This document shows, in pieces, positions 201 through 12,922 of a stretch of DNA of 32,000 nt. The stretch covers positions 2,310,001 through 2,342,000 of the forward strand of contig NZ_JAGIOS010000001.1 in assembly GCF_017876815.1 (NCBI RefSeq), read 5' to 3'. The notes beneath the pieces were generated by a model. The model did not search any database, was not told the origin of the DNA, and saw only the letters and a program-made list of their open reading frames with translations. Each line of letters begins with the position of its first letter. Positions within the stretch are counted from its first letter, which is position 1. Source of the stretch: Sinorhizobium meliloti (GTDB taxonomy: Bacteria; Pseudomonadota; Alphaproteobacteria; Rhizobiales; Rhizobiaceae). A program made the position numbers and the translations under genes.

Positions 201-503
201 ATGAATCTCACTCCGCGCGAAAAAGACAAGCTGTTGATTTCCATGGCGGCGATGGTCGCGCGCCGGCGGCTCGAGCGGGGCGTGAAACTCAATCATCCCG
301 AGGCGATCGCCCTCATCACCGACTTCGTCGTGGAAGGCGCGCGAGACGGCCGTTCCGTCGCCGAGCTGATGGAGGCAGGCGCCCATGTTCTCACCCGCGA
401 TCAGGTGATGGAGGGCATTGCGGAGATGATCCACGACATCCAGGTCGAGGCGACTTTTCCCGACGGGACGAAGCTCGTCACCGTCCACGAGCCTATCCGT
501 TAA
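201..503 (+). CDS. ureA: urease subunit gamma
   Basis: The 100-aa product [60 protein letters not shown]... is a textbook UreA. ATG at 201; the track ORF 15..503 is only an in-frame upstream extension. Confidence 0.97.
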
Positions 504-515
504 CGAGGAGGCACC

Positions 516-770
516 ATGCTCAGCCTGCGTCCGAACTGCGAATGCTGCGATCGAGACCTGCCACCCGATAGCGGCGATGCGATGATCTGCACCTTCGAGT
601 GTACCTTTTGCGCCGGCTGTGCGGAAACGAAGCTTGGCGGGACTTGCCCGAATTGCGGCGGCGAACTGGTTCGGCGCCCGGTGCGGCCCGCGTCAATGCT
701 GAAGAAATATCCGGCATCGACGGCGCGCGTCCTGAAGCCTCAGGGCTGTGCGCCCGAACGAGCCGCCTGA
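516..770 (+). CDS. Cys-rich small protein, DUF1272-like (putative zinc-ribbon/metal-binding)
   Basis: ATG 516 is preceded by SD GAGGAGG (505-511), 13 nt after the ureA stop. Product is 84 aa with nine Cys in the first 47 residues (CxCC ... Cx3Cx2Cx2C ... Cx2C). Sits between ureA and ureB on the same strand. Confidence 0.8.
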
Positions 771-781
771 GGGGAACGAAC

Positions 782-1087
782 ATGATTCCAGGTGAGATTA
801 TCGCCGCCGCCGGTGAGATCGAGTTGAATGCGGGCCTCGAAACCGTCAGCATCGAGGTCGCCAACTCGGGCGACCGACCGGTGCAGGTCGGTAGCCATTA
901 TCATTTCGCCGAGACCAATCCGGGCCTGATCTTCGACCGTGACGCCGCGCGCGGCAAGCGGCTCGACATTCCTGCGGGTACGGCCGTCCGCTTCGAGCCG
1001 GGACAGACACGGCAGGTGACGCTCATCCCGCTTTCGGGAAAACGCGAGGTTTTCGGCTTCCGCCAGCAGGTCATGGGGAAGCTATGA
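782..1087 (+). CDS. ureB: urease subunit beta
   Basis: The 101-aa product [53 protein letters not shown]... is a canonical UreB. ATG 782 follows GAGGGGAA. The track ORF 599..1087 is an in-frame extension. Confidence 0.97.
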
Positions 1088-1503
1088 GAGCGGCCGCTCC
1101 TGCGCTGAGCCTGTTGTTGTGCTGCACGGCTCCCGCCAATGCGCAACAGCCTGAGCCGGATTGCCGGAAGGCCGTGAGCCAGATGGATCTCAACATTTGC
1201 GCCGATCAGGACTACCGGGCGGCGGATGCGGAGCTGAACAAGACCTACCGCCTTGTGGTCGCGGCCATGCAGGCGACCGACAAGGAGCTTGGCGACATCG
1301 ACGCGGCTTACGCCGGAGCGCTCGAGGCACTAAAAAAAGCGCAGCGAGCCTGGATCGGCTATCGCGACGGCCAATGCGAACTCGCCGGGTTCGAGGCGAG
1401 GGGCGGCTCGATGGAACCCATGCTGGTCTCCGGTTGCCTCGCAGAGCTGACACGCAAGCGCACCGCCGAGCTCAAGGAACTCATGGAATCTGCGGAGAAT
1501 TGA
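1084..1503 (+). CDS. exported DUF1311/LprI-like domain protein
   Basis: ATG 1084 overlaps the ureB stop (ATGA). It has an N-terminal Sec-type signal ([16 protein letters not shown]). This is followed by the pattern [22 protein letters not shown] ... [13 protein letters not shown], characteristic of the DUF1311 (lysozyme-inhibitor LprI N-terminal-like) family. Confidence 0.8.
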
Positions 1504-1506
1504 TCA

Positions 1507-2157
1507 TTGCAAAGCGGCCGCGTCATCATGATCGTTGGCAATGGTGACGTGCCCGAGGGCGCTGCCGCGACGATCGATGCAGCCGATCTGGTGATCCGTT
1601 TCAACGATTGCCGCTCGGTCGGGAAGGGCGGCAGCAGGACCGATATCATCGCCGTCTGCAACACCGGCCGCCCGGCACTGTCGATGCTCGGCGGCGGGCG
1701 CTGGAAGACGAGTGCGGCGGTCCGGCAGGCACGCGAGCTATGGAGCGTCCGCTCCGGAGCCAGGTTCGCCGCGATGCGGGCAGCACTTGCCGGGACCCAT
1801 CCGGATCTCGACGATTTCTGCGACGACTATACGGCCGGCTTCGAGAGCTTCGCGCGGGCGACGGCACGCAAGCACCGGGTCATCGCGGCCGAGACGCATG
1901 ACCGGCTGGAGCGCGATCTCGCCCGCTTCGCGCCGTCGCCTTATGTCGCGCCGTCGAGCGGTCTGGTGGTGATTGCCGACATCGTGTCGAGCTTTGCCGC
2001 AGCCGGCGACGATGTCGTGCTTGCCGGCTTCGGCCATATCGGCTGGCAGTGGCACCCGTTCGCCGCCGAGCGCCGCTATGTCGATGCGCTCGCAGCGCAA
2101 GGGCGGCTTCGCCGACTTCATCCATTTGCCTCTTCAGATTTGCCCCAGGGAGCCTGA
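1507..2157 (+). CDS. conserved hypothetical protein with sialyltransferase (GT29)-like L/S/VS motif look-alikes
   Basis: TTG 1507 lies 8 nt after GGAGA (1494-1498); an alternative ATG is at 1528. The ORF fills the ureB/DUF1311-ureC gap and ends 3 nt before ureC. Motifs present: IVGNG..x9..IDAADLVIRFN..x5..VGKGGSRTD; PSSGLVVIADIV...DVVLAGFG; HPFAAER. Confidence 0.75.
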   Translation: MQSGRVIMIVGNGDVPEGAAATIDAADLVIRFNDCRSVGKGGSRTDIIAVCNTGRPALSMLGGGRWKTSAAVRQARELWSVRSGARFAAMRAALAGTHPDLDDFCDDYTAGFESFARATARKHRVIAAETHDRLERDLARFAPSPYVAPSSGLVVIADIVSSFAAAGDDVVLAGFGHIGWQWHPFAAERRYVDALAAQGRLRRLHPFASSDLPQGA

Positions 2158-2160
2158 TCC

Positions 2161-3873
2161 ATGTCCTACAGAATGTCGCGCGCGGCCTATGCCAACATGT
2201 TCGGTCCGACCGTGGGCGACAAGGTGCGCCTCGCCGACACCGAGCTCTTCATCGAGGTCGAGAAGGATTTCACCACGCATGGCGAGGAGGTGAAGTTCGG
2301 GGGCGGCAAGGTCATCCGTGACGGCATGGGCCAAAGCCAGGTGACGCGCGAAGGCGGCGCGGTCGACACGGTGATCACCAATGCGCTTATCCTCGATCAT
2401 TGGGGGATCGTGAAGGCGGATATCGGGCTGAAGGACGGGCGGATCGCGGCAATAGGCAAGGCCGGCAATCCGGACATGCAGCCGGGCGTCACCATTATCG
2501 TCGGCCCGGGCACGGAGGTCATCGCCGGCGAGGGCAAGATCGTCACGGCCGGGGGCATGGACAGCCATATACATTTCATCTGCCCGCAGCAGATCGAAGA
2601 GGCGTTGATGAGCGGCCTGACCTGCATGCTCGGCGGCGGGACGGGACCGGCGCACGGTACGCTCGCCACGACCTGCACGCCCGGACCGTGGCACATCGCC
2701 CGCATGATCGAAGCGGCCGATGCGTTTCCGATGAATCTCGCCTTTGCGGGCAAGGGAAATGCGTCGCTGCCCGGCGCGCTCGTGGAAATGGTACTCGGCG
2801 GCGCGACCTCGCTGAAGCTGCACGAGGATTGGGGCACGACGCCGGCCGCCATCGACTGCTGCCTCTCCGTTGCCGACGAATACGACGTGCAGGTTATGAT
2901 CCATACCGACACACTCAACGAAAGCGGCTTCGTCGAGGATACGATCGCGGCGATCAAGGGCAGGACGATCCACGCCTACCACACGGAAGGCGCCGGCGGC
3001 GGGCATGCGCCTGATATCATCAGGATCTGCGGCCAGCCGAACGTCATCCCGTCCTCGACCAATCCGACGCGGCCCTATACGGTGAACACGCTTGCGGAAC
3101 ATCTCGACATGCTGATGGTATGCCATCACCTGTCGCCCACCATTCCGGAAGACATCGCCTTCGCCGAAAGCCGCATCCGCAAGGAGACGATCGCAGCGGA
3201 GGATATCCTCCACGATATCGGCGCCTTCTCGATCATTTCCTCCGACAGCCAGGCGATGGGGCGGGTCGGCGAGGTGGCGATCCGCACCTGGCAGACCGCC
3301 GACAAGATGAAGCGCCAGCGCGGACGGCTCAAGGAGGAGACCGGCGACAACGACAATTTCCGGGTCAAGCGCTACATCGCCAAATATACGATCAACCCGG
3401 CGATAGCCCATGGCCTCAGCCATGAGATCGGCTCGCTCGAGGTCGGCAAGCGCGCCGATCTGGTCCTCTGGAATCCCGCCTTCTTCGGCGTGAAGCCCGA
3501 CATGGTGCTTCTCGGCGGCACGATCGCCGCAGCACCCATGGGCGACCCGAACGCCTCCATCCCCACGCCGCAGCCGGTCCACTACCGGCCGATGTTCGGC
3601 GCCTATGGAAGGAGCCGGACCAACTCCTCGGTCACCTTCGTCTCGCAGGCGTCGCTCGATGCCGGGCTCGCCGGCAGGCTCGGCGTCGCCAAGGAGCTCG
3701 TCGCTGTCCAGAATACCCGCGGCGGCATCGGCAAGGCGTCGATGATCCACAACAGCCTGACGCCGCATATCGAGGTCGACCCGGAAACCTACGAGGTCCG
3801 CGCCGACGGCGAGCTCCTGACCTGCGAGCCGGCGACGGTGCTGCCGATGGCGCAGCGGTATTTCCTGTTCTAG
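2161..3873 (+). CDS. ureC: urease subunit alpha
   Basis: 570 aa with hallmark segments [70 protein letters not shown] and MVCHHL. Confidence 0.98.
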
Positions 3874-4235: not shown

Positions 4236-4553
4236 TCAGGCAATCGCCGCAAGCCCTCTTTTCTGAACAATGGTCAGCAATCGCAGCGCCGGCCCTCCCG
4301 GCTTCTTCACCCCGCGCTCCCAATCGGACACAAGCCCCTTGCTCACATTGAGGTAGCGGGCAAAGACAGGCTGCGAGATATGTTCACGCTCCCGAATAGC
4401 GCGAATTTCCTCCGGGGTCATTGACTCCACGGCCGTCAAGCAGGCGTCGTCGAATTCGCGCATCGTCTGCTTGTCGATCGCGCCGGCTTCAAACAGGCTC
4501 TCCATGGTTTCATGGATGGCCGCCATTGCCTCACTCTTATACTTCTTCGCCAT
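4236..4553 (-). CDS. HTH (XRE/COG2944 NadS/YiaG-like) antitoxin
   Basis: ATG at 4553 lies 8 nt after GGAGG. Product MAKKYKSEAMAAIHETMESLFEAG...MTPEEIRAIREREHISQPVFARYLNVSKGLVSDWERGVKKPGGPALRLL carries a C-terminal HTH. It overlaps the upstream toxin gene by 17 nt. The track start at 4583 is an extension. Confidence 0.85.
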   Translation of the reverse strand: MAKKYKSEAMAAIHETMESLFEAGAIDKQTMREFDDACLTAVESMTPEEIRAIREREHISQPVFARYLNVSKGLVSDWERGVKKPGGPALRLLTIVQKRGLAAIA

Positions 4554-4923
4554 CTTCAACCTCCGAAAAGCGCCCTTTCCCAATCAGCACGGCCATTTGC
4601 GCATCCGATAGCGCAAGGAGTTCCTTCGCCATCTTCTTGAACAGGGCTTCCTCGCCGTCTTCAATGTTGGCCTGTTCACTCTTTGCAAAGCCGAAAACGA
4701 AGAATGCCCGCTGTTCCAGCCTAAACAGGATGATCGTGCGATAACCGCCTGACTTCCCTTGCCCCGCCCTCGCGACACGCTGTTTGATCACGCCGCCGCC
4801 AAGATCGGCGTCAATCTGGCCTCGTTCGGCGCGGCGCACCGCGTCTACCAAGGCAGCGTCCGCGATCCTCTGCTTTCGAGTAAAACGCTCAAACCATGCG
4901 TTCTTAAAAATCCGCACCGCCAT
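4537..4923 (-). CDS. RelE/ParE-superfamily toxin (COG4737 / former DUF1044 type)
   Basis: 128 aa, MAVRIFKNAWFERFTRKQRI...IDADLGGGVIKQRVARAGQGKSGGYRTIILFRLEQRAFFVFGFAKSEQANI...KKMAKELLALSD. This conserved core is typical of the family, and the toxin-first order with an HTH partner is HigBA-like. Confidence 0.85.
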   Translation of the reverse strand: MAVRIFKNAWFERFTRKQRIADAALVDAVRRAERGQIDADLGGGVIKQRVARAGQGKSGGYRTIILFRLEQRAFFVFGFAKSEQANIEDGEEALFKKMAKELLALSDAQMAVLIGKGRFSEVEDGEEV

Positions 4924-5209: not shown

Positions 5210-5755
5210 ATGATGATGCTCGGCAGAAAAGTTCCCGCTGTAACCTTCCGCACCCGCGTCCGCGACGAGTCCGTCGGCGGTTCCAATCCGTTCCGCTGGC
5301 AGGACGTTACCTCGGACGACTATTTCGCCGGCAAGCGCGTCGTGCTGTTTTCGCTGCCGGGTGCTTTCACCCCGACCTGCTCGACCTACCAGCTGCCGGA
5401 CTTCGAAAAGCTCACCTCCGAATTCCGGACTCTCGGGATCGACGAGATCTACTGCGTCTCCGTCAACGACGCCTTCGTGATGAACGCCTGGGGCAAATCG
5501 CAGGGCCTCGAGAACGTCAAGCTCATTCCGGACGGTTCGGGCGAGTTCACCCGCAAGATGGGCATGCTCGTCGCCAAGGACAATCTCGGCTTCGGCATGC
5601 GCTCCTGGCGCTATGCCGCCGTCATCAACAACGGCGTTGTCGAGCAGTGGTTCGAAGAGGAAGGCTACTCCGACAACTGCGACAGCGATCCCTACGGCGT
5701 CTCCTCGCCGCAGAACATCCTCGCGGCGCTGAAGTCCAAGAAGCTCGCCGCCTGA
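5210..5755 (+). CDS. peroxiredoxin, Prx5-type (AhpC/TSA family)
   Basis: Contains FSLPGAFTPTCS (peroxidatic Cys motif), IYCVSVNDAFVMNAWGK and RSWRYAAVINNGVVE. There are three tandem ATGs at 5210/5213/5216 after AGGAG (5205-5209). The third has the best spacing, so the true start may be 5216. Confidence 0.92.
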   Translation: MMMLGRKVPAVTFRTRVRDESVGGSNPFRWQDVTSDDYFAGKRVVLFSLPGAFTPTCSTYQLPDFEKLTSEFRTLGIDEIYCVSVNDAFVMNAWGKSQGLENVKLIPDGSGEFTRKMGMLVAKDNLGFGMRSWRYAAVINNGVVEQWFEEEGYSDNCDSDPYGVSSPQNILAALKSKKLAA

Positions 5756-5776: not shown

Positions 5777-5854
5777 AAAGCCCCGGCTGCCGCAAGCAGG
5801 TTCCTGAAAATCCACGCGATTTTCGCCTTCTTGCTGGTGCCGGGGCTTTTTCTT
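5777..5854 (+). terminator. long imperfect hairpin plus T-run downstream of the peroxiredoxin gene
   Basis: aaagccccggc (5777-5787) pairs with gccggggcttt (5839-5849). An inner stem gcaagcagg/ccttcttgc has one mismatch. The hairpin runs into a T-tract, ttttt (5847-5851), that continues as ctt (to 5854). Confidence 0.5.
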
Positions 5855-5932
5855 GCTACAGTGAAGACTTCCAGGAGGAAGCGGATGCGGGGGCGCGAAC
5901 CATGCACGTTTCCTCGTTTCACCGGTAAGGGA

Positions 5933-6241
5933 ATGCAGAAATCCATGGTTTACATCATTGCATATCTGACGGCGCATGCGGGCAAGGGCGACGAGGTCGT
6001 GGCACTGACGACGCCGCTGATCGAAGCGACGCTGAAAGAGGCCGGTTGCGTCAGCTATGAGCTCTATCGCAAGCCCACGGATCCCGATGCGCTGGTGTTC
6101 GTCGAAACATGGAAGGACAGGGCGGCTATCGATGCGCATTTCGCCGAGCCGCATCTGAAGGCCTTCCAGACGGCGGCGGCGAATCTTTTGGCGAGCGCCC
6201 GCGTCGAGATCGTGCATCCGGAAAAGATCGAGGTGGTCTGA
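5933..6241 (+). CDS. antibiotic-biosynthesis-monooxygenase (ABM, YgiN-like) domain protein
   Basis: Product of about 100 aa: M(QKSM)VYIIAYLTAHAGKGDEVV...CVSYELYRKPTDPDALVFVETWKDRAAIDAHFAEPHLKAF. Start is ATG 5933 or 5945; the track start 5831 is an extension. The stop lies 1 nt before the ureE GTG. Confidence 0.85.
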   Translation: MQKSMVYIIAYLTAHAGKGDEVVALTTPLIEATLKEAGCVSYELYRKPTDPDALVFVETWKDRAAIDAHFAEPHLKAFQTAAANLLASARVEIVHPEKIEVV

Positions 6242-6242
6242 C

Positions 6243-6707
6243 GTGCCCTATCGCTCGACCGAAGTTCTTTCGCCCGGTCCCGGCGAAAGGGCGCCGCTTC
6301 ATCGCTTGACCCTGACGCATGAGCAGCGCCATCTGCGCCGCAAGCTCCTGCACCTCGAAAACGACGATGTGGTGATGCTGGATCTCAAGGAGCCCGTGAT
6401 GCTCGCCGATGGCGATCTTCTGGTGCTCGAGGGCGGCGGCCATATCGAGGTGAAGGCGGCAGCGGAAGCGCTTTACGACATCCGCGCGCGAAACCCGCTG
6501 CACCTGATGGAGCTTGCCTGGCATCTCGGCAACCGGCACCTCCCGGCGGCGGTGGAAGAGGGGCGGATTCTGATCGCCCGCGACCCGGTCATTCGCGCGA
6601 TGCTGGAGGGCCTGGGCGCCACCGTCGATGAAGTGAACGAACCCTTCCATCCCCTGCACGGCGCCTACCACCAGCACGGTCACGGCGATCACTACCGTCA
6701 TGGCTGA
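6243..6707 (+). CDS. ureE: urease accessory protein UreE (nickel metallochaperone)
   Basis: GTG start. The product has a UreE-like core (LTHEQRHLRRKLLHLENDDVVMLDL...LAWHLGNRHLP) and a His-rich tail HGAYHQHGHGDHYRHG. Confidence 0.93.
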   Translation: MPYRSTEVLSPGPGERAPLHRLTLTHEQRHLRRKLLHLENDDVVMLDLKEPVMLADGDLLVLEGGGHIEVKAAAEALYDIRARNPLHLMELAWHLGNRHLPAAVEEGRILIARDPVIRAMLEGLGATVDEVNEPFHPLHGAYHQHGHGDHYRHG

Positions 6708-7371
6708 GCATGCCGATACGCAGTCGCTCCTGCGTCTCGTTACCTGGCTCTCGCCCGCCTTTCCCGTCGGCTCCTTCTCCTATTCCGGCGGTCTGGAGCA
6801 GGCGATTCATGACCGGCTTGTCACCGGTGCCGACGATTTGCGGCTATGGTGCGAAACGCTCCTGGATCACGGCACGACGTGGAACGACGCGCTGCTTCTG
6901 GCGGAAGGTTACCGTGCATGTGACGATGCCGCGCGGTTGATCGCGGCATCGGAACTGGCCGAAGCACTGGCCGGATCGCGCGAGCGGCATATGGAAACCA
7001 TGCTCCTCGGCGAGGCGTTCCTGGCCGCCGCCGGCCACTGGCCGCACGCGTCGCTCGAATTCCCTGGCGCGAGGGCCGCCTATCCGGTGGCGGTCGGCGC
7101 GGTCGCCGGAGCGCACCGCACCGGCCTCGAAGCGGCGCTCGCCGCCTTTCTCAACGCCACCATATCGAACGCAGTGTCGGTGGCTATCCGCTGCGGCGTT
7201 ACCGGCCAGCGCGACGGGGTCGGCATGCTTGCGCGAATGGAGAAAACGATAGGGGCGGTGGCAACGCGCGCCACGCGCGCCTCGCTCGATGATCTTGCCG
7301 CCGCGACGATCATCGCCGACATTGCCTCGCTGAGACACGAGATATTGCATTCACGATTGTTCCGCACTTAA
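6700..7371 (+). CDS. ureF: urease accessory protein UreF
   Basis: MAEHADTQSLLRLVTWLSPAFPVGSFSYSGGLEQAI... has a typical UreF N-terminus. The start overlaps the ureE end by 8 nt. Confidence 0.95.
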   Translation: MAEHADTQSLLRLVTWLSPAFPVGSFSYSGGLEQAIHDRLVTGADDLRLWCETLLDHGTTWNDALLLAEGYRACDDAARLIAASELAEALAGSRERHMETMLLGEAFLAAAGHWPHASLEFPGARAAYPVAVGAVAGAHRTGLEAALAAFLNATISNAVSVAIRCGVTGQRDGVGMLARMEKTIGAVATRATRASLDDLAAATIIADIASLRHEILHSRLFRT

Positions 7372-7407
7372 CGGAACAACGGACGGACTTCGAAAGGATA
7401 GAAAAAG

Positions 7408-8019
7408 ATGCCATCGAAAAACGGTCCTCTGCGCATCGGTATCGGCGGTCCGGTCGGATCCGGAAAGACGGCGCTGACCGACAAGCTCTGCAAGGCCATG
7501 CGGGAGAAATATTCCGTCGCGGTGGTTACGAACGACATCTACACCAAGGAAGATGCCGAGGCGCTGGTGCGCATGCAGGCCTTGCCTTCGGAGCGGATCG
7601 TCGGAGTCGAGACGGGCGGATGCCCCCACACGGCGATCCGCGAGGATGCATCGATCAATCTTCAGGCGATCGCCGATCTCAACCGCCGCATTCCCGATCT
7701 CGATGTCGTCTTCATCGAGTCGGGAGGGGACAATCTGGCAGCGACCTTCTCGCCCGATCTCGCGGATCTTACGATTTATGTGATCTCGGTCTGCCAGGGC
7801 GAGGAAATTCCGCGCAAGGGCGGACCGGGCATCACCAGGTCCGATCTGCTGGTGATCAACAAGAAGGATCTCGCCCCTTACGTCGGTGCCGACCTCGGGG
7901 TCATGGAACGCGACGCGGCCCGGATGCGAGCCGAAAAGCCGTTCGTGTTCTCGGATATGAAACGCGGCGACGGGGTGGAGCGGATCGTCGAGTTCCTGAC
8001 GGTGCACGGGGGGCTCTAG
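7408..8019 (+). CDS. ureG: urease accessory GTPase UreG
   Basis: Contains P-loop [14 protein letters not shown] motif [13 protein letters not shown], and ESGGDNL and NKKDL GTPase motifs. Confidence 0.98.
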
Positions 8020-8323: not shown

Positions 8324-11300
8324 CTATTCCGCGGCCAGCGCCGGATGGCTGATGACCTTGCCGTCGGACTTGCGGCGCTTCTCGTCTTCGAGCGCCTTGA
8401 TGCGCTCTTCGAGGCTCTCGATCGTGCTGCCCTGTTCGGCGGCAAGCTTGCTCAGCGCCTCCTGGTCGAGCGGCAGTGCCTCCTCGTCCTTCTTGCCGAT
8501 GAAGCGGCCGAAAGCCCAGGCGAGGAGACGCGACAGGTCGTCCATGATCAGGAAGAAGGACGGAACCACGACGAGGCTCAGGACCGTCGAAACGATGATG
8601 CCTCCGATGACGGCGATCGCCATCGGTGCACGGAAGGAACCGCCTTCGCCGACGCCCAGCGCCGAGGGCAGCATGCCCGCGGACATGGCGATCGAGGTCA
8701 TGACGATCGGACGAGCCCGCTTCCGTCCGGCCTCGATCATGGCGAGCGTCCGGTCCATGCCGTGATGCATCATCTCGATACCGAAGTCGACGAGCAGGAT
8801 GGCGTTCTTGGTGACGATGCCCATCAGCATCAGGATACCGATCAGCACCGGCATCGACAGCGCGTTCTGAGTCAGGATCAAGGCGGCTGCCACGCCGCCG
8901 ATCGCGAGCGGCAGCGAGAACAGGATGGTGAAAGGCTGTATCACATCCTTGAACAGGAGGATGAGCACGACCAGCACCATCATCAGACCCAGCAGCATGG
9001 CGTTGCCGAAGCTCTCCTGCATCTCGGCCTGCACCTCGGCGTCGCCGCTTTCAAGGAACTGGACCGTTTCAGGCAGATCGGCGTCGGCGGCGATTTCCCT
9101 GAAGCGGGCCGATGCCGTGTCGAGCGCCACGCCGGCGGGCAGGTCGGCGCCGAGCTTGACGACGCGGTAGCGGTCGTAGCGCTTGATGGAACTCGGCCCT
9201 TCCGCATAGTTGATGTCCGCGACGCTCGACAGCGGAACGGTCGCTCCGGATGCCGTCTGGACCTTCAGGTTGCGGATCGCCGCCAGGTCGGTGCGAAAAT
9301 CACGGTCGAGCTGCACCCGGATCGGGATCAGGCGCCCATCGAGCGCAATCTTCGTCAACTGCGCGTCGATATCGCCGATCGTGGCGATGCGGATCACCTC
9401 GGAGATCTGCGCCGTCGTGATGCCAAGGCGCGACATCTGCTCGTCGCGCGGCCGGATCTGCAGTTCCGGTCGGGGCAGCGCTCCCTCGGGGCTAACGTTG
9501 GCAAGCAGCGGATCTCGGCGCAGATCCGCTTCCAGGGTGGCGACCGCCTTGTCGAGATCCGCCTCGTTGCTGGAAAGCAGGTTGAACGACAGATCACGCT
9601 CGCCGCGATCGTTCAGCTTGGTGACGCGGACATCGGGAATCGATCGCAATCGGGCGAAGATTTCCTTCTCGATCTCCGATTGCGGCTTGATCCGACCGGC
9701 CGGGGGCAGCTTCGGCAGGTATTGGCCGATCAGCGGTGTGCGGCCGATCACGTCGTTGACGACCTTGTTGATCAGCGAATGATCGAGCTTCTCGAGCAGC
9801 ACCGTGACGGCAGCGCGTCGCAGTTCGAGGTCGCCCTTGGGCGAGGCGCCGCCGAGTACGAAGACGTTTTCCACGCCGTCGATATCCTTGACGCGATTGT
9901 AGATCTCGGTGGTGGTCCGGTCCGTATCCGCGAGCATTGCGTCCGGCGGCAGTTCGATGGACAGGCTGACGCGCGAGCTGTCTTCCGGCGGCAGGAAGCT
10001 GCCCGGGACGAAGACGAGCAGCGCGACCACGGAACCGACCGAGACCAGGATCGCCGCAAGCAGGGTGGAGTAGCGCGTGTACCAGCGCTTCGTGGTGAAG
10101 CGTACGAGGCGCGTGTACTGGCGCATCATGAAGCCTTCGTCGTCATGATGCCCGCTGACATCCGAAGGCTTCATCAGATAGGCGGCCATGACCGGCGTGA
10201 TCAGGCGGGCGACCAGGAGCGAGAAGAACACCGAGACGGCGACCGTCAGGCCGAACTGGATGAAGTACTGTCCCGGAATGCCAGGCATGAAGGATACGGG
10301 CACGAAGACGGCGATGATCGTGAAGGTGGTGGCGATCACCGCAAGGCCGATCTCGTCCGCAGCCTCGATCGCTGCGCGGTAAGGCGACTTGCCCATGCGG
10401 ATATGACGCTCGATGTTCTCGATCTCCACGATCGCATCGTCGACGAGAATACCCGTCGCGAGCGTCATCGCCAGGAAGCTGACGAGGTTCAGCGAGAAGC
10501 CGAGCAGTTCCATCACCCAGAAGGTGGGGATGGCTGAGAGCGGCAGTGCGACCGCCGAGATCAAGGTCGCGCGCCAGTTGCGCAGGAACAGCATAACGAC
10601 GATGACGGCGAGCACGGCGCCCTCGATCAGCGTATGAATCGCCGCTTCGTAGTTGCCGTAGGTGAAGTAGACCGAATCGTCCACCATCTCGATGGAGACA
10701 TCCGGATGCTTCGCGCGGATTTCATCGAGCGTCTTGCCGACGGTTTCCGCGACCGACACTTCGCTCGCCCCCTTGGCGCGGAACACGGCGAAGGTGACGC
10801 CCGGCTGCCCGTTGAAGCGGGAGAACGACTTCGGCTCCTCATAGGTGTCGATCACCTTGCCGAGTTCCGACAGACGGACGAAGCGGCCGTTCGGCAGCGA
10901 GATCATCGTACCCGCCAGCGCCGTTACGTCGCGCGTGTCGCCCAATGTGCGGATCGCCTGTTCGCTGCCGCCGACCTGGCCGCGGCCGGAACCGAGGTCC
11001 ATGTTCATTCGGCGAAGCTGGGCGTTGACGTCGGCGGCGCTGATGCCAAAGGAATTCAGACGGTCCTCATCGAGCTCGACCCGGACCTCGCGGTCGGAGC
11101 CGCCGTAGCGGTCGACACGGCCGATGCCGGTTTGGCCCTGGATGGCGCGCTTGATCGTGTCGTCGACGAACCAGGACAGCTCTTCCAGCGTCATGCCGGG
11201 CGACGAGACGGAAAATGTCTGGATCGCCTGGCCTTCCACATCGACCTTGGAAACGATCGGCTCTTCGATCGAGGTCGGCAGGTCGCTTCGGATGCGGTCG

Positions 11301-11635
11301 ATGGCATCCTTGACATCCTGCACGGCCTGCGTCGTCGGGACTTCCATGCGGAAGATGACGGCGGTCGTCGAAATGCCGTCGGTGATCGTCGACTCGATAT
11401 GGTCGACGCCGGAGACGCCGGCGACCGCGTCCTCGATCTCCTTGGTGACCTGGGTTTCCAGTTCGGCGGGCGCCGCACCGCTCTGTGTGACGGCGATCGA
11501 AACGATCGGCACGTCGATGTTCGGGAAGCGCGTGATGGGCAGCGAATTGAACGACTGCCATCCGAGCACCACGAGCACGAAAAACGCCAGGATGGGCGCG
11601 ACCGGATTGCGGATGGACCAGGCGGAGAAGTTCAT
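8324..11635 (-). CDS. RND (AcrB/HAE-type) efflux transporter permease
   Basis: 1103 aa, MNFSAWSIRNPVAPILAFFVLVVLGWQSFNSLPITRFPNIDVP... The 12-TM/two-large-loop RND layout is recognisable throughout. A C-terminal charged extension of about 55 aa is present. Confidence 0.95.
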   Translation of the reverse strand: MNFSAWSIRNPVAPILAFFVLVVLGWQSFNSLPITRFPNIDVPIVSIAVTQSGAAPAELETQVTKEIEDAVAGVSGVDHIESTITDGISTTAVIFRMEVPTTQAVQDVKDAIDRIRSDLPTSIEEPIVSKVDVEGQAIQTFSVSSPGMTLEELSWFVDDTIKRAIQGQTGIGRVDRYGGSDREVRVELDEDRLNSFGISAADVNAQLRRMNMDLGSGRGQVGGSEQAIRTLGDTRDVTALAGTMISLPNGRFVRLSELGKVIDTYEEPKSFSRFNGQPGVTFAVFRAKGASEVSVAETVGKTLDEIRAKHPDVSIEMVDDSVYFTYGNYEAAIHTLIEGAVLAVIVVMLFLRNWRATLISAVALPLSAIPTFWVMELLGFSLNLVSFLAMTLATGILVDDAIVEIENIERHIRMGKSPYRAAIEAADEIGLAVIATTFTIIAVFVPVSFMPGIPGQYFIQFGLTVAVSVFFSLLVARLITPVMAAYLMKPSDVSGHHDDEGFMMRQYTRLVRFTTKRWYTRYSTLLAAILVSVGSVVALLVFVPGSFLPPEDSSRVSLSIELPPDAMLADTDRTTTEIYNRVKDIDGVENVFVLGGASPKGDLELRRAAVTVLLEKLDHSLINKVVNDVIGRTPLIGQYLPKLPPAGRIKPQSEIEKEIFARLRSIPDVRVTKLNDRGERDLSFNLLSSNEADLDKAVATLEADLRRDPLLANVSPEGALPRPELQIRPRDEQMSRLGITTAQISEVIRIATIGDIDAQLTKIALDGRLIPIRVQLDRDFRTDLAAIRNLKVQTASGATVPLSSVADINYAEGPSSIKRYDRYRVVKLGADLPAGVALDTASARFREIAADADLPETVQFLESGDAEVQAEMQESFGNAMLLGLMMVLVVLILLFKDVIQPFTILFSLPLAIGGVAAALILTQNALSMPVLIGILMLMGIVTKNAILLVDFGIEMMHHGMDRTLAMIEAGRKRARPIVMTSIAMSAGMLPSALGVGEGGSFRAPMAIAVIGGIIVSTVLSLVVVPSFFLIMDDLSRLLAWAFGRFIGKKDEEALPLDQEALSKLAAEQGSTIESLEERIKALEDEKRRKSDGKVISHPALAAE

Positions 11636-11650
11636 GGTCTCATGTTCCCG

Positions 11651-12838
11651 TCAGTTGGTTGCCGGCTCGGCGGATTCGACCGGATTGATGCGGTCGCCAT
11701 CGCGCACATAGGCACCGGCCTTCGCCACCGCCTGCTCACCCGGTCTGATGCCGGAGAGTATCTCGATGAATTGTCCGTCCTGGATGCCCGTTTCGACAGG
11801 TACCAGGCGCACGACGCCGTCTTCGACCTTGCGGACGATGGACTTGCCGTCTTCCGATGTAACGGCCGTTTGCGGCAAAACCACCGTTTCCTTCTGCTCC
11901 GCCACGATCACTGCGCTGGCATACATGCCCGCGCGCGCCTTGGATGCGTCGGTCAGGCTGATACGCACCGTGCCGAGGCGGGTCTGCGGGTCGACCGTGG
12001 GCGCGATCAACCGGATCTTCCCCTCGATCGTGGTGGTGCTGCCGGCAAGCTTGACCGTGGCCGTCTGCCCCACGGCAAGCTTGATGACATCGGACTCGGC
12101 GACATCGGCCCACATCTCGATTTCGCCGTCGCGAATGATCGCGAACAGCGGCTCGCCGCTGCCGCTGGCGATCGCACCGACCTTGGCGTTCTTTCGCGAG
12201 ATGACGCCGCTGACCGGCGCCTTAACGGCGGTTCGTGCGAGACGCAGGTCGACGTCGTCTATCTGGGCCTGCACCACCTTGATATCTGCCGTTGCGACGC
12301 TCACCGACTGCTCGGCCGAGCGGACGCGTGCGCGGCCCGCGGCAGCGAGCGCTTTCAAGCGGTCGGCCTCGGCCGTCGATACCGTACCGTTCTTGGAAAG
12401 CTGCACGGCACGCTCTGCCACACGCGTCGCCTCCTCCGAATTGGCCGTCACTTCGGCAAGCTGGGCGTGCAGCTGGGCAAGCGACGCCTCGGCCTTTGCG
12501 AGATTGGCCTCGAGCTGGCTCTTCTGCAGGAGCAGCGCGTCCTCATTGAGCACGGCGAGCGTGCCGCCTTCCTCGACCCGGTCGCCGACATCGACGTTGA
12601 GCGAGCGGATGGCAAGTCCATCGACCAGCGGAGAGACGTAGATCTCGTCCACCGCCTCGATCGAACCGGTCGCAATGACGCGGTCGGTAATCGCACGCTC
12701 CGTCGCTTCGGTCACGACGATGGATGGCGGCGCCTGTTTTTGCGGGGACTTGACGGCCTCTTCGGCCGAAGCGCTTACAAGCGCGGACAGGAGCATCGCT
12801 GCACAAGCGCCGACGAGAGGCAGGAGTTTCTGAGCCAT
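11651..12838 (-). CDS. RND efflux membrane-fusion (periplasmic adaptor) protein
   Basis: ATG 12838 gives MAQKLLPLVGACAAMLLSALVSASAEE... (signal/anchor). It is followed by a coiled-coil hairpin (QLEANLAKAEASLAQLHAQLAEV...) and beta-barrel segments. The stop lies 15 nt before the RND start. The track start 12913 is an extension. Confidence 0.9.
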   Translation of the reverse strand: MAQKLLPLVGACAAMLLSALVSASAEEAVKSPQKQAPPSIVVTEATERAITDRVIATGSIEAVDEIYVSPLVDGLAIRSLNVDVGDRVEEGGTLAVLNEDALLLQKSQLEANLAKAEASLAQLHAQLAEVTANSEEATRVAERAVQLSKNGTVSTAEADRLKALAAAGRARVRSAEQSVSVATADIKVVQAQIDDVDLRLARTAVKAPVSGVISRKNAKVGAIASGSGEPLFAIIRDGEIEMWADVAESDVIKLAVGQTATVKLAGSTTTIEGKIRLIAPTVDPQTRLGTVRISLTDASKARAGMYASAVIVAEQKETVVLPQTAVTSEDGKSIVRKVEDGVVRLVPVETGIQDGQFIEILSGIRPGEQAVAKAGAYVRDGDRINPVESAEPATN

Positions 12839-12922
12839 AGGCCTGTTTTCCCGAAGCTGAAGCAAACATGCCCGATCACGCCCGCGCAGGGGCGAATATC
12901 CGGCCGCAATCACGCTATTTCA

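Follow-up and report, generated by a model that had tools for sequence, protein, structure and literature searches.

What protein is encoded in the gap directly before ureC in the urease operon of Sinorhizobium meliloti, and does it serve urease at all? We addressed this question in a window of 32,000 nucleotides from S. meliloti (assembly GCF_017876815.1, contig NZ_JAGIOS010000001.1, positions 2,310,001 to 2,342,000 of the forward strand), in the coordinates of which all positions below are given unless another locus is named. The initial annotation of this window had described an open reading frame (ORF) of 216 amino acids filling the gap, the product of which carries a set of motifs resembling the sialylmotifs of glycosyltransferase family 29 (GT29). 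The ORF lies exactly where it had been placed, 3 nt from ureC, and the likeness to GT29 proved to be genuine, since significant profile and structure matches were obtained that are essentially to sialyltransferases only. We conclude that the ORF encodes a cytoplasmic, 216-residue minimal member of the bacterial branch of GT29, which has the sialyltransferase fold, a modified GT-A fold. Our preferred reading, to which we assign a probability of roughly 0.6, is that it is a passenger gene that is not required for urease and that specifies a GT29-fold transferase of a cytidine monophosphate (CMP)-activated ulosonate, probably 3-deoxy-D-manno-oct-2-ulosonic acid (Kdo), to an envelope glycan. The ORF and its motifs are as follows.

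1494-1497, plus strand: GGAG Shine-Dalgarno sequence, 9 nt 5' of the TTG start, as read from the sequence
1507-2157, plus strand: GT29-like ORF of 216 amino acids (ORF call), TTG start and TGA stop
1531-1644, plus strand: equivalent of sialylmotif L, residues 9-46, predicted to bind nucleotide, from profile alignment to GT29 chains
1951-2034, plus strand: equivalent of sialylmotif S, residues 149-176, from profile alignment to ST6GalNAc2 and ST3Gal1
2053-2070, plus strand: equivalent of sialylmotif VS, H183-P-F-A-A-E188, with the predicted catalytic His and structural Glu, from hhalign and conservation

An alternative in-frame ATG at 1528 would give a product of 209 amino acids, and this shorter form is present in some databases. 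Within the 216-residue product, motif L comprises IVGNG (residues 9-13), IDAADLVIRFN (23-33) and VGKGGSRTD (38-46), motif S comprises PSSG (149-152) and AGFG (173-176), and the VS string is HPFAAER (183-189). These strings had been quoted at the correct residues in the initial annotation, except that the gap between RFN33 and VGKGG is four residues and not five.

When the window protein was searched on its own, it matched the Pfam model PF00777 (Glyco_transf_29) with an E-value of 0.065 (13.1 bits), in a colinear alignment of residues 9-177 with positions 59-227 of the hidden Markov model. A PF00777 match was present in 19 of 21 orthologues, with a best E of 3.9e-5. A profile set was assembled from 91 diverse, full-length representatives that share 21-56% identity with the query; 54 of these match PF00777 at E <= 0.01, the best of them at 9.2e-10, and none of the 91 matches a different Pfam family at this threshold. 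One relative, P0176, passes the PF00777 gathering threshold (26.7 bits), and some further relatives carry precomputed PF00777 tags. Compared with PDB sequences, the 91-sequence profile recovered ST6GalNAc2 (E 5.6e-9), pig ST3Gal1 (5.5e-8), ST6Gal1 (6.3e-8 to 1.4e-6) and ST8Sia3 (2.7e-3), with no significant match outside GT29. Searches of the same sequences with the single protein or with close orthologues returned nothing useful, and GT29 was reached only with the 91-sequence profile. Hhalign also matched the family to published bacterial GT29 proteins from Loktanella (probability 97.5%, E 8.6e-12) and Pseudovibrio (94.5%, E 7.4e-8). On these comparisons, GT29 membership is supported at the profile level, not by a single-sequence threshold.

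Membership of GT42 (Cst-I/II) or of the MAF/DUF115-type families was considered and rejected, as no GT42 chain was recovered in the PDB profile search and PF00777 was the only Pfam family found; resemblance to GT42 is confined to the level of the fold and is weaker than that to GT29. In all, 711 homologues were found, and they are named 'Urease operon accessory protein', 'urease operon 23 kDa accessory protein' or 'hypothetical'; the homologue cluster that contains the window protein is that of Sinorhizobium meliloti. An exhaustive profile search returned 537 representative clusters (50% identity) at E <= 0.001, mostly of about 200 amino acids. A profile search with distant relatives in a word-indexed protein database yielded 26 proteins, none of them informatively named, and no NCBIfam model covers the window protein.

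The predicted structure led to the same family. An AlphaFold2 model built on the orthologue alignment had a predicted local distance difference test score (pLDDT) of 86.2 and a predicted template modelling score (pTM) of 0.85, and shows seven strands alternating with helices. When the model was compared with the PDB using Foldseek, the top 27 matches were all sialyltransferases. Ranks 1-13 are GT29 enzymes (pig ST3Gal1 2wml at E 4.7e-6, ST6GalNAc2 and ST6Gal1), with E-values of 4.7e-6 to 2.2e-4, a probability of 1.0 and template modelling (TM) scores of 0.51-0.59, and ranks 14-27 comprise CstI and CstII chains of GT42, three more ST6GalNAc2 chains and the Pasteurella sialyltransferase 9c08. 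Beyond rank 27 the probability was below 0.3. All functionally named matches up to E 0.001 in a viral structure library were likewise GT29 proteins or sialyltransferases, from mimivirus, herpesvirus, poxvirus and a tailed phage. The modelled fold is a modified GT-A (variant 2) fold that is closest to the solved GT29 enzymes, and we regard the ORF product as almost certainly a real GT29-fold homologue.

Residue-by-residue alignment of the family profile with solved GT29 chains places residues 9-46 on motif L of ST6GalNAc2, ST3Gal1 and ST6Gal1, and residues 149-176 on PSTG...YGF of ST6GalNAc2 and ST3Gal1. Conservation was scored in 83 distant representatives. Seven residues (G11, R31, G152, F175, G179, H183 and E188) are 100% conserved and a further eight (N12, V29, N33, G42, D46, P149, S150 and G174) are conserved at 90-99%, with P149, S150, G152, G174 and F175 at 94-100%. 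Superfamily-wide invariants are confined to sialylmotifs L, S and VS (H-x4-E). The initial annotation had named the putative catalytic His183 and the PSSG loop as elements to check; His183 and, in the loop, G152 are present in all 83 representatives, and P149 and S150 in at least 90% of them. The equation of HPFAAER with motif VS is borne out by hhalign, which sets H183...E188 on the VS motifs PHDFDAE and SHNFQRE of published bacterial GT29 proteins. Only six residues lie between GFG176 and H183, and the hhalign alignment shows an 11-residue deletion relative to bacterial GT29 at the place of motif III. To judge from the alignments, the family keeps motifs L and S and a single His motif, either because one of motifs III and VS is missing or because the two are merged. 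We provisionally read H183-x4-E188 as motif VS because E188 is invariant.

A type II membrane anchor is absent, as motif L begins at residue 9 with no N-terminal extension before it, and there is no cysteine at the positions that form the conserved L-S disulfide of the animal enzymes. Since all bacterial GT29 proteins likewise have neither the disulfide cysteines nor the anchor (PMC5811610), these absences do not speak against membership of the bacterial branch; some plant GT29 members lack motifs III and VS (PMC5811610). The view of the initial annotation that GT29 is a family of eukaryotes and viruses does not hold: Petit et al. 2018 (Sci Rep, PMC5811610) published 23 bacterial GT29 sequences from Alpha-, Gamma- and Epsilonproteobacteria, 19 of which are alphaproteobacterial. 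Their set includes single-domain proteins of about 205 amino acids from Loktanella (SDE00283.1), Thioclava (WP_078572004.1) and Pseudovibrio, and multi-domain proteins from S. fredii and Ensifer. The GT29-like ORF is not in this sequence set, and the word 'urease' is absent from the paper and its supplements.

The urease-operon clade has conserved features of its own. C51, W66, F87, H131 and Y146 are invariant only in this clade, and all lie between motifs L and S. The clade-only invariants further include the stretch L-D-D-F-C-D-D-Y (residues 101-108, nt 1807-1830), with D103, C105 and D106. Three cysteines, C35, C51 and C105, are invariant in the clade, the first of which is found in 64% of the wider family as well. 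In GT29 enzymes the acceptor site is formed by the region between motifs L and S. The location of the clade-only invariants between these motifs suggests, at the level of sequence, a clade-specific acceptor, and the Cys and Asp residues of the clade might form a metal or acceptor site.

GT29 enzymes hold CMP with motifs L and S and use a histidine as base for an inverting transfer that needs no metal, as is known from crystallography. By analogy, N12 and N33 of motif L and S150, S151 and G152 of motif S would bind a CMP-activated 2-keto-3-deoxy acid sugar through its nucleotide and phosphate, H183 would serve as general base on the acceptor hydroxyl with E188 positioning it, and transfer would be inverting and metal-independent. 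The donor would most probably be CMP-Kdo, because this is the only CMP-ulosonate expected in all host genomes and because the hundreds of Rhizobiales that carry the gene cannot all make nonulosonic acids. CMP-N-acetylneuraminic acid (CMP-Neu5Ac) is probably not the donor, since sialic acid synthesis is not known to be universal in the host. The acceptor would be a clade-specific glycan, probably of the envelope. Argued from analogy in this way, there is an even chance that the protein is an active CMP-ulosonate transferase.

Several members of the wider family lie among genes for sugar metabolism and glycan assembly. One relative (P0222) is encoded together with uridine diphosphate (UDP)-Glc dehydrogenase, three GT2 genes, epimerases, GT8 and rmlC. 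P0176, a fusion of Methyltransf_24 to GT29, lies with a GT4-like gene (a weak Pfam match), GT2, an ATP-binding cassette (ABC) exporter and genes of the deoxythymidine diphosphate (dTDP)-rhamnose pathway (rml-type). The same fusion recurs in P0172, a GT2-GT29-like fusion is found in P0187, P0286 adjoins a Stf0-type sulfotransferase, and P0174 is near Methyltransf_24 and a sugar nucleotidyltransferase. The gene for P0289 has a Methyltransf_24 gene as its neighbour within a phage structural module, and the contexts of two further relatives are uninformative and not glycan-related. The GT29-like domain occurs recurrently with Methyltransf_24, both on a phage contig with terminase, portal and Mu-like capsid genes (L086, 8001-9239) and in a sugar-modification cluster (L087); a phage-encoded GT29 inside a virion module is unusual. 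Two long relatives, P0220 (693 amino acids) and P0246 (699 amino acids), have the GT29-like domain at the N-terminus, and their C-terminal portion of about 480 residues is conserved but matches no Pfam family.

These contexts bear on two other readings, both of which retain the fold and differ in the chemistry. Relatives have dTDP-rhamnose and UDP-sugar genes, but no CMP-sugar synthetase gene, in their neighbourhood, and motif III, which contacts the CMP phosphate in the animal enzymes, is missing or collapsed, as would suit an active glycosyltransferase whose donor is not a CMP-ulosonate and might instead be a nucleoside diphosphate (NDP)-hexose or a phospho-sugar. We consider this unlikely, as conservation is highest at the nucleotide-binding residues of motifs L and S, the housekeeping enzyme KdsB makes CMP-Kdo, so that no linked synthetase is needed, and every enzyme of the GT29 and GT42 folds characterised so far uses, to our knowledge, CMP-activated keto-acid sugars. 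A plant GT29 protein, RCKT1, has moreover been proposed to use CMP-Kdo (PMC11288761). The other reading would have the protein be no transferase at all, but a sensor or regulator that responds to CMP or a CMP-sugar, or a CMP-sugar hydrolase, the acceptor elements having been lost on reduction to 216 residues. It would account for a length well short of the 275-374 amino acids of solved GT29 chains, for the lack of a clear motif III and of the lid regions, and for those relatives whose contexts are not glycan-related. The putative catalytic His-x4-Glu is nevertheless 100% conserved across the superfamily and the clade is strongly conserved between motifs L and S, where GT29 acceptor sites lie, while fusions to GT2 and clustering with other glycosyltransferases suggest assembly-line glycosyltransfer, and we judge a non-transferase derivative to be improbable.

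We turn now to the place of the gene in the urease operon, in which the local order is ureA, DUF1272 ORF, ureB, LprI-like ORF, GT29-like ORF, ureC.

201-503, plus strand: ureA (urease gamma subunit)
516-770, plus strand: Cys-rich DUF1272 ORF between ureA and ureB (Pfam E 1.6e-29)
782-1087, plus strand: ureB (urease beta subunit), the stop of which overlaps the start of the LprI-like ORF
1084-1503, plus strand: LprI-like ORF (PF07007, LprI/DUF1311 family; Pfam E 1.1e-26) with a signal-peptide-like N-terminus
2161-3873, plus strand: ureC (urease alpha subunit)
6243-8019: ureE, ureF and ureG

The stop of the LprI-like ORF is separated from the GT29-like ORF by 3 nt, the same distance as that between the GT29-like stop and ureC, and a consensus scan detected no promoter-like or terminator-like site from ureA to the 3' end of ureC. 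Because of these 3-nt gaps and the lack of an internal promoter- or terminator-like site, co-transcription of the GT29-like ORF with ureABC is the natural reading. The cluster includes other genes besides: the interval from ureC to ureE contains a RelE-family toxin with a helix-turn-helix (HTH) antitoxin (4236-4923, minus strand), a Redoxin/AhpC-type peroxiredoxin (5210-5755, plus strand) and an ABM monooxygenase (5831-6241, plus strand). The presence of these genes inside the cluster makes operon content an unreliable guide to urease function. The spacer between ureC and ureE is as short as about 30 bp in some related loci and as long as about 3.1 kb in others and, given this variation, appears to be an insertion hot spot. 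Directly downstream of ureG are genes for an AcrB-family resistance-nodulation-division (RND) pump and a HlyD-type membrane-fusion protein (8324-12913, minus strand), and the Shinella loci, like several of the others inspected, have AcrB on the downstream side of the cluster too. Directly upstream of the urease cluster in Shinella is an ABC transporter operon of the Liv/Urt type (L042, 2525-2869), with genes for a permease, two ATPases, DUF6867 and a Peripla_BP_6 binding protein; its equivalents are found upstream in Ensifer and Sinorhizobium where the locus extends far enough. This transporter could be a urea or amide uptake system.

To follow the gene across species, one genome per species was scanned with close orthologues only as queries. 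A relative of the GT29-like gene was found in 379 species, and the locus counts that follow refer to the best 80 of these 379 matching species loci. The arrangement ureA-(DUF1272)-ureB-(LprI)-GT29-like-ureC is present in 67 of the 80, so the position of the gene between ureB and ureC recurs outside this strain. With the profile and structure matches and the conserved motif residues, this means that none of the three outcomes named as refuting in the initial annotation was observed. The LprI-like gene is present in 68 loci and the DUF1272 gene in 63. In the other thirteen, ureA, ureB and ureC are all absent from the surrounding 5 kb, although one of these loci has a ureE-like stretch. The LprI-like gene adjoins 9 of the 13 copies without adjacent ure genes, which suggests that it and the GT29-like gene function as a pair, with one product in the periplasm and the other in the cytoplasm.

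Seven of the 13 urease-less loci belong to Shinella species (L041, L042, L043, L051, L065, L067 and L078). They have the same flanks as the urease-positive Shinella loci with which they were compared (L045, L046, L048, L052, L054-L056, L058, L076 and L079), namely the ABC transporter, DUF6867 and binding protein upstream and a 230-aa gene and AcrB downstream. At all seven sites ureD/A, ureB, ureC and ureEFG are gone and the GT29-like gene is kept, with or without the DUF1272, LprI and GGDEF genes; DUF1272 is retained in four of the Shinella loci that lost ure genes. This pattern amounts to a piecemeal excision of urease genes around passenger genes. The orphans are not monophyletic in a neighbour-joining tree and differ in the passenger genes they retain, and more than one urease-loss event is therefore possible. 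The remaining orphans, in Mesorhizobium, Paramesorhizobium, Phyllobacterium and Brucella sp., also lack adjacent ure genes, and the context in Mesorhizobium (L035) is unrelated, with a carotenoid oxygenase, a glyoxalase, a LacI regulator and an oxidoreductase. None of the 13 orphan copies is disrupted, and each retains all of the motif residues. For the orphan Shinella copies the ratio of nonsynonymous to synonymous substitution (dN/dS, Nei-Gojobori) comes to 0.20 (21 pairs with a dS of about 0.75), as against 0.21 for copies linked to urease genes and 0.23 when the copies of one set are compared with those of the other. The ORF is real and under purifying selection.

The suggestion that the motifs arose by chance in a GC-rich genome, the ORF being spurious or non-coding, can draw on the Pfam E-value of only 0.065 for the single sequence and on the many long ORFs of high-GC DNA. 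Against 711 homologues, 379 species loci, a dN/dS of about 0.2, a confident AlphaFold2 model and profile and fold matches to sialyltransferases only, its likelihood is negligible and it was rejected. A true urease accessory factor, in which the GT29 fold would modify or chaperone urease or a Ure maturation protein, or take part in nickel delivery, has more to be said for it. The gene lies between ureB/LprI and ureC in the great majority of loci, is spaced by 3-nt gaps without an internal promoter or terminator, and encodes clade invariants (C35, C51, D103, C105, D106, D107 and H131) that could bind metal. However, it stays intact with an unchanged dN/dS where all ure genes at the locus have been deleted, and orphan copies exist in four further genera. 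Pfam and NCBIfam scans of the window protein gave no match to a UreD/E/F/G family, and it therefore has no sequence similarity to urease accessory proteins; nor do the 13 of 80 loci and the Shinella losses show the dependence on, or co-occurrence with, ure genes expected of such a factor. The cluster holds obvious passengers (the RelE/HTH pair, the peroxiredoxin and the ABM monooxygenase), and many ureases mature without such a gene. We consider an accessory role unlikely, and the gene is probably not required for urease. The initial annotation had left the substrate as either urease-related or of the envelope; survival of the gene where all ure genes at the locus were deleted favours the envelope, or an otherwise non-urease substrate, and disfavours the urease-related alternative. 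A further idea is that rhizobia deliberately co-express the LprI-like and GT29-like pair, with DUF1272, alongside urease as an envelope-remodelling module. Induction by urea or nitrogen limitation would then lead the small GT29 protein to transfer Kdo, or a different ulosonic acid, onto a surface glycan or a periplasm-bound protein, and the envelope would thereby be adapted to the ammonia and alkalinisation that urease brings about. The compact alphaproteobacterial enzyme, with no clear motif III, may also stand near the ancestor of the eukaryotic sialyltransferases. We offer both thoughts only as tentative and unlikely elaborations.

The preferred reading, a passenger gene that shares the urease transcript without being a urease maturation factor and that would encode a CMP-ulosonate transferase, has several observations weighing against it. 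The 13.1 bits of the window protein fall below the Pfam gathering cut-off of 23 for PF00777. The two alignment methods disagree over the counterpart of H183, which is the VS histidine for hhalign, whereas HMMER instead aligns G-H183-P-W with H-H-Y-W of motif III in pig ST3Gal1, making it the motif III histidine; in pig ST3Gal1 the VS and motif III histidines are His319 and His302. Motif III itself, (H/Y)-Y-(Y/F/W/H)-(E/D/Q/G), is missing or collapsed. No CMP-sugar synthetase gene was found beside any relative examined, and the class of donor rests on homology only. With the gene placed between ureB and ureC in 84% of the inspected loci, its function could be tied to urease or to nitrogen limitation. 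Urease loss was counted at the locus, and genomes scored as urease-less may carry urease elsewhere.

ORFs that interrupt the ureABC genes of rhizobia have been known since the 1990s, and we take the 'urease operon 23 kDa accessory protein' and the ORFs interrupting ureABC in Rhizobium meliloti and R. leguminosarum to be the window ORF. Miksch et al. in 1994 (Mol Gen Genet) and Toffanin et al. in 2002 (Arch Microbiol) are said to have dealt with urease clusters. The searchable literature, which lacks these two, yielded no paper on the window ORF and none linking the rhizobial ureABC-interrupting ORF with GT29. The database name implies a role in urease for which we found no evidence, while NCBI names some orthologues (WP_183432306.1 and WP_407866856.1), orphan copies among them, 'glycosyltransferase family 29 protein'. 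For a gene present in hundreds of Rhizobiales species, a concrete and testable biochemical assignment can now replace the 30-year-old placeholder 'urease operon accessory protein', with the caution that genes within a urease operon are not necessarily urease factors. The analysis also exposes a large, mostly unannotated family of bacterial GT29-fold proteins of about 200 amino acids, many of whose 537 clusters are missed by Pfam. As a soluble, disulfide-free minimal GT29, the protein could be used to model the core of sialyltransferases, and it is relevant to the proposal that those of eukaryotes have an alphaproteobacterial origin.

Among known systems, Cst-I and Cst-II of Campylobacter jejuni (GT42) share the same modified GT-A fold and appear as second-tier Foldseek matches (E 4.6e-4 to 1.2e-2), whereas at the sequence level there is no match and the structural scores are weaker than those for GT29. 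The animal GT29 enzymes provide the best fold matches (pig ST3Gal-I, 2wml/2wnb; human ST6GalNAc-II, 6apj/6apl; ST6Gal-I, 4js1/6qvs/4mps; ST8Sia-III, 5bo6), and their metal-independent, inverting mechanism with a catalytic His is the chemistry that would be expected here. They differ in that identity is 13-20%, the chains have 275-374 rather than 216 residues, and the ORF product has no type II anchor, L-S disulfide or clear motif III. A precedent for the donor is offered by the plant GT29 protein RCKT1/MGP2 of Arabidopsis, a proposed CMP-beta-Kdo transferase of rhamnogalacturonan II (RG-II) (PMC11288761), in that a GT29-fold enzyme of an organism without sialic acid is proposed to carry out inverting Kdo transfer from CMP-Kdo. 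RCKT1 is, however, a larger Golgi membrane protein with a pectin acceptor, and the likeness is drawn without direct sequence comparison. The bacterial GT29 proteins of Petit et al. resemble the ORF product in being soluble, about 200 amino acids long, mostly alphaproteobacterial and without an anchor or disulfide cysteines, and in having motifs L, S and VS (H-D/P-F/W-x-x-E). The urease-operon proteins differ from them in forming a separate clade, in lacking 11 residues between the motif S GF and the VS His, a deletion that takes away the region of motif III, and in being embedded in a urease operon. Bacterial GT29 proteins (since 2018) and the NCBI label of GT29 on some orthologues were thus already known, and what is new is a minimal clade of the family, without a clear motif III, in the urease operon.

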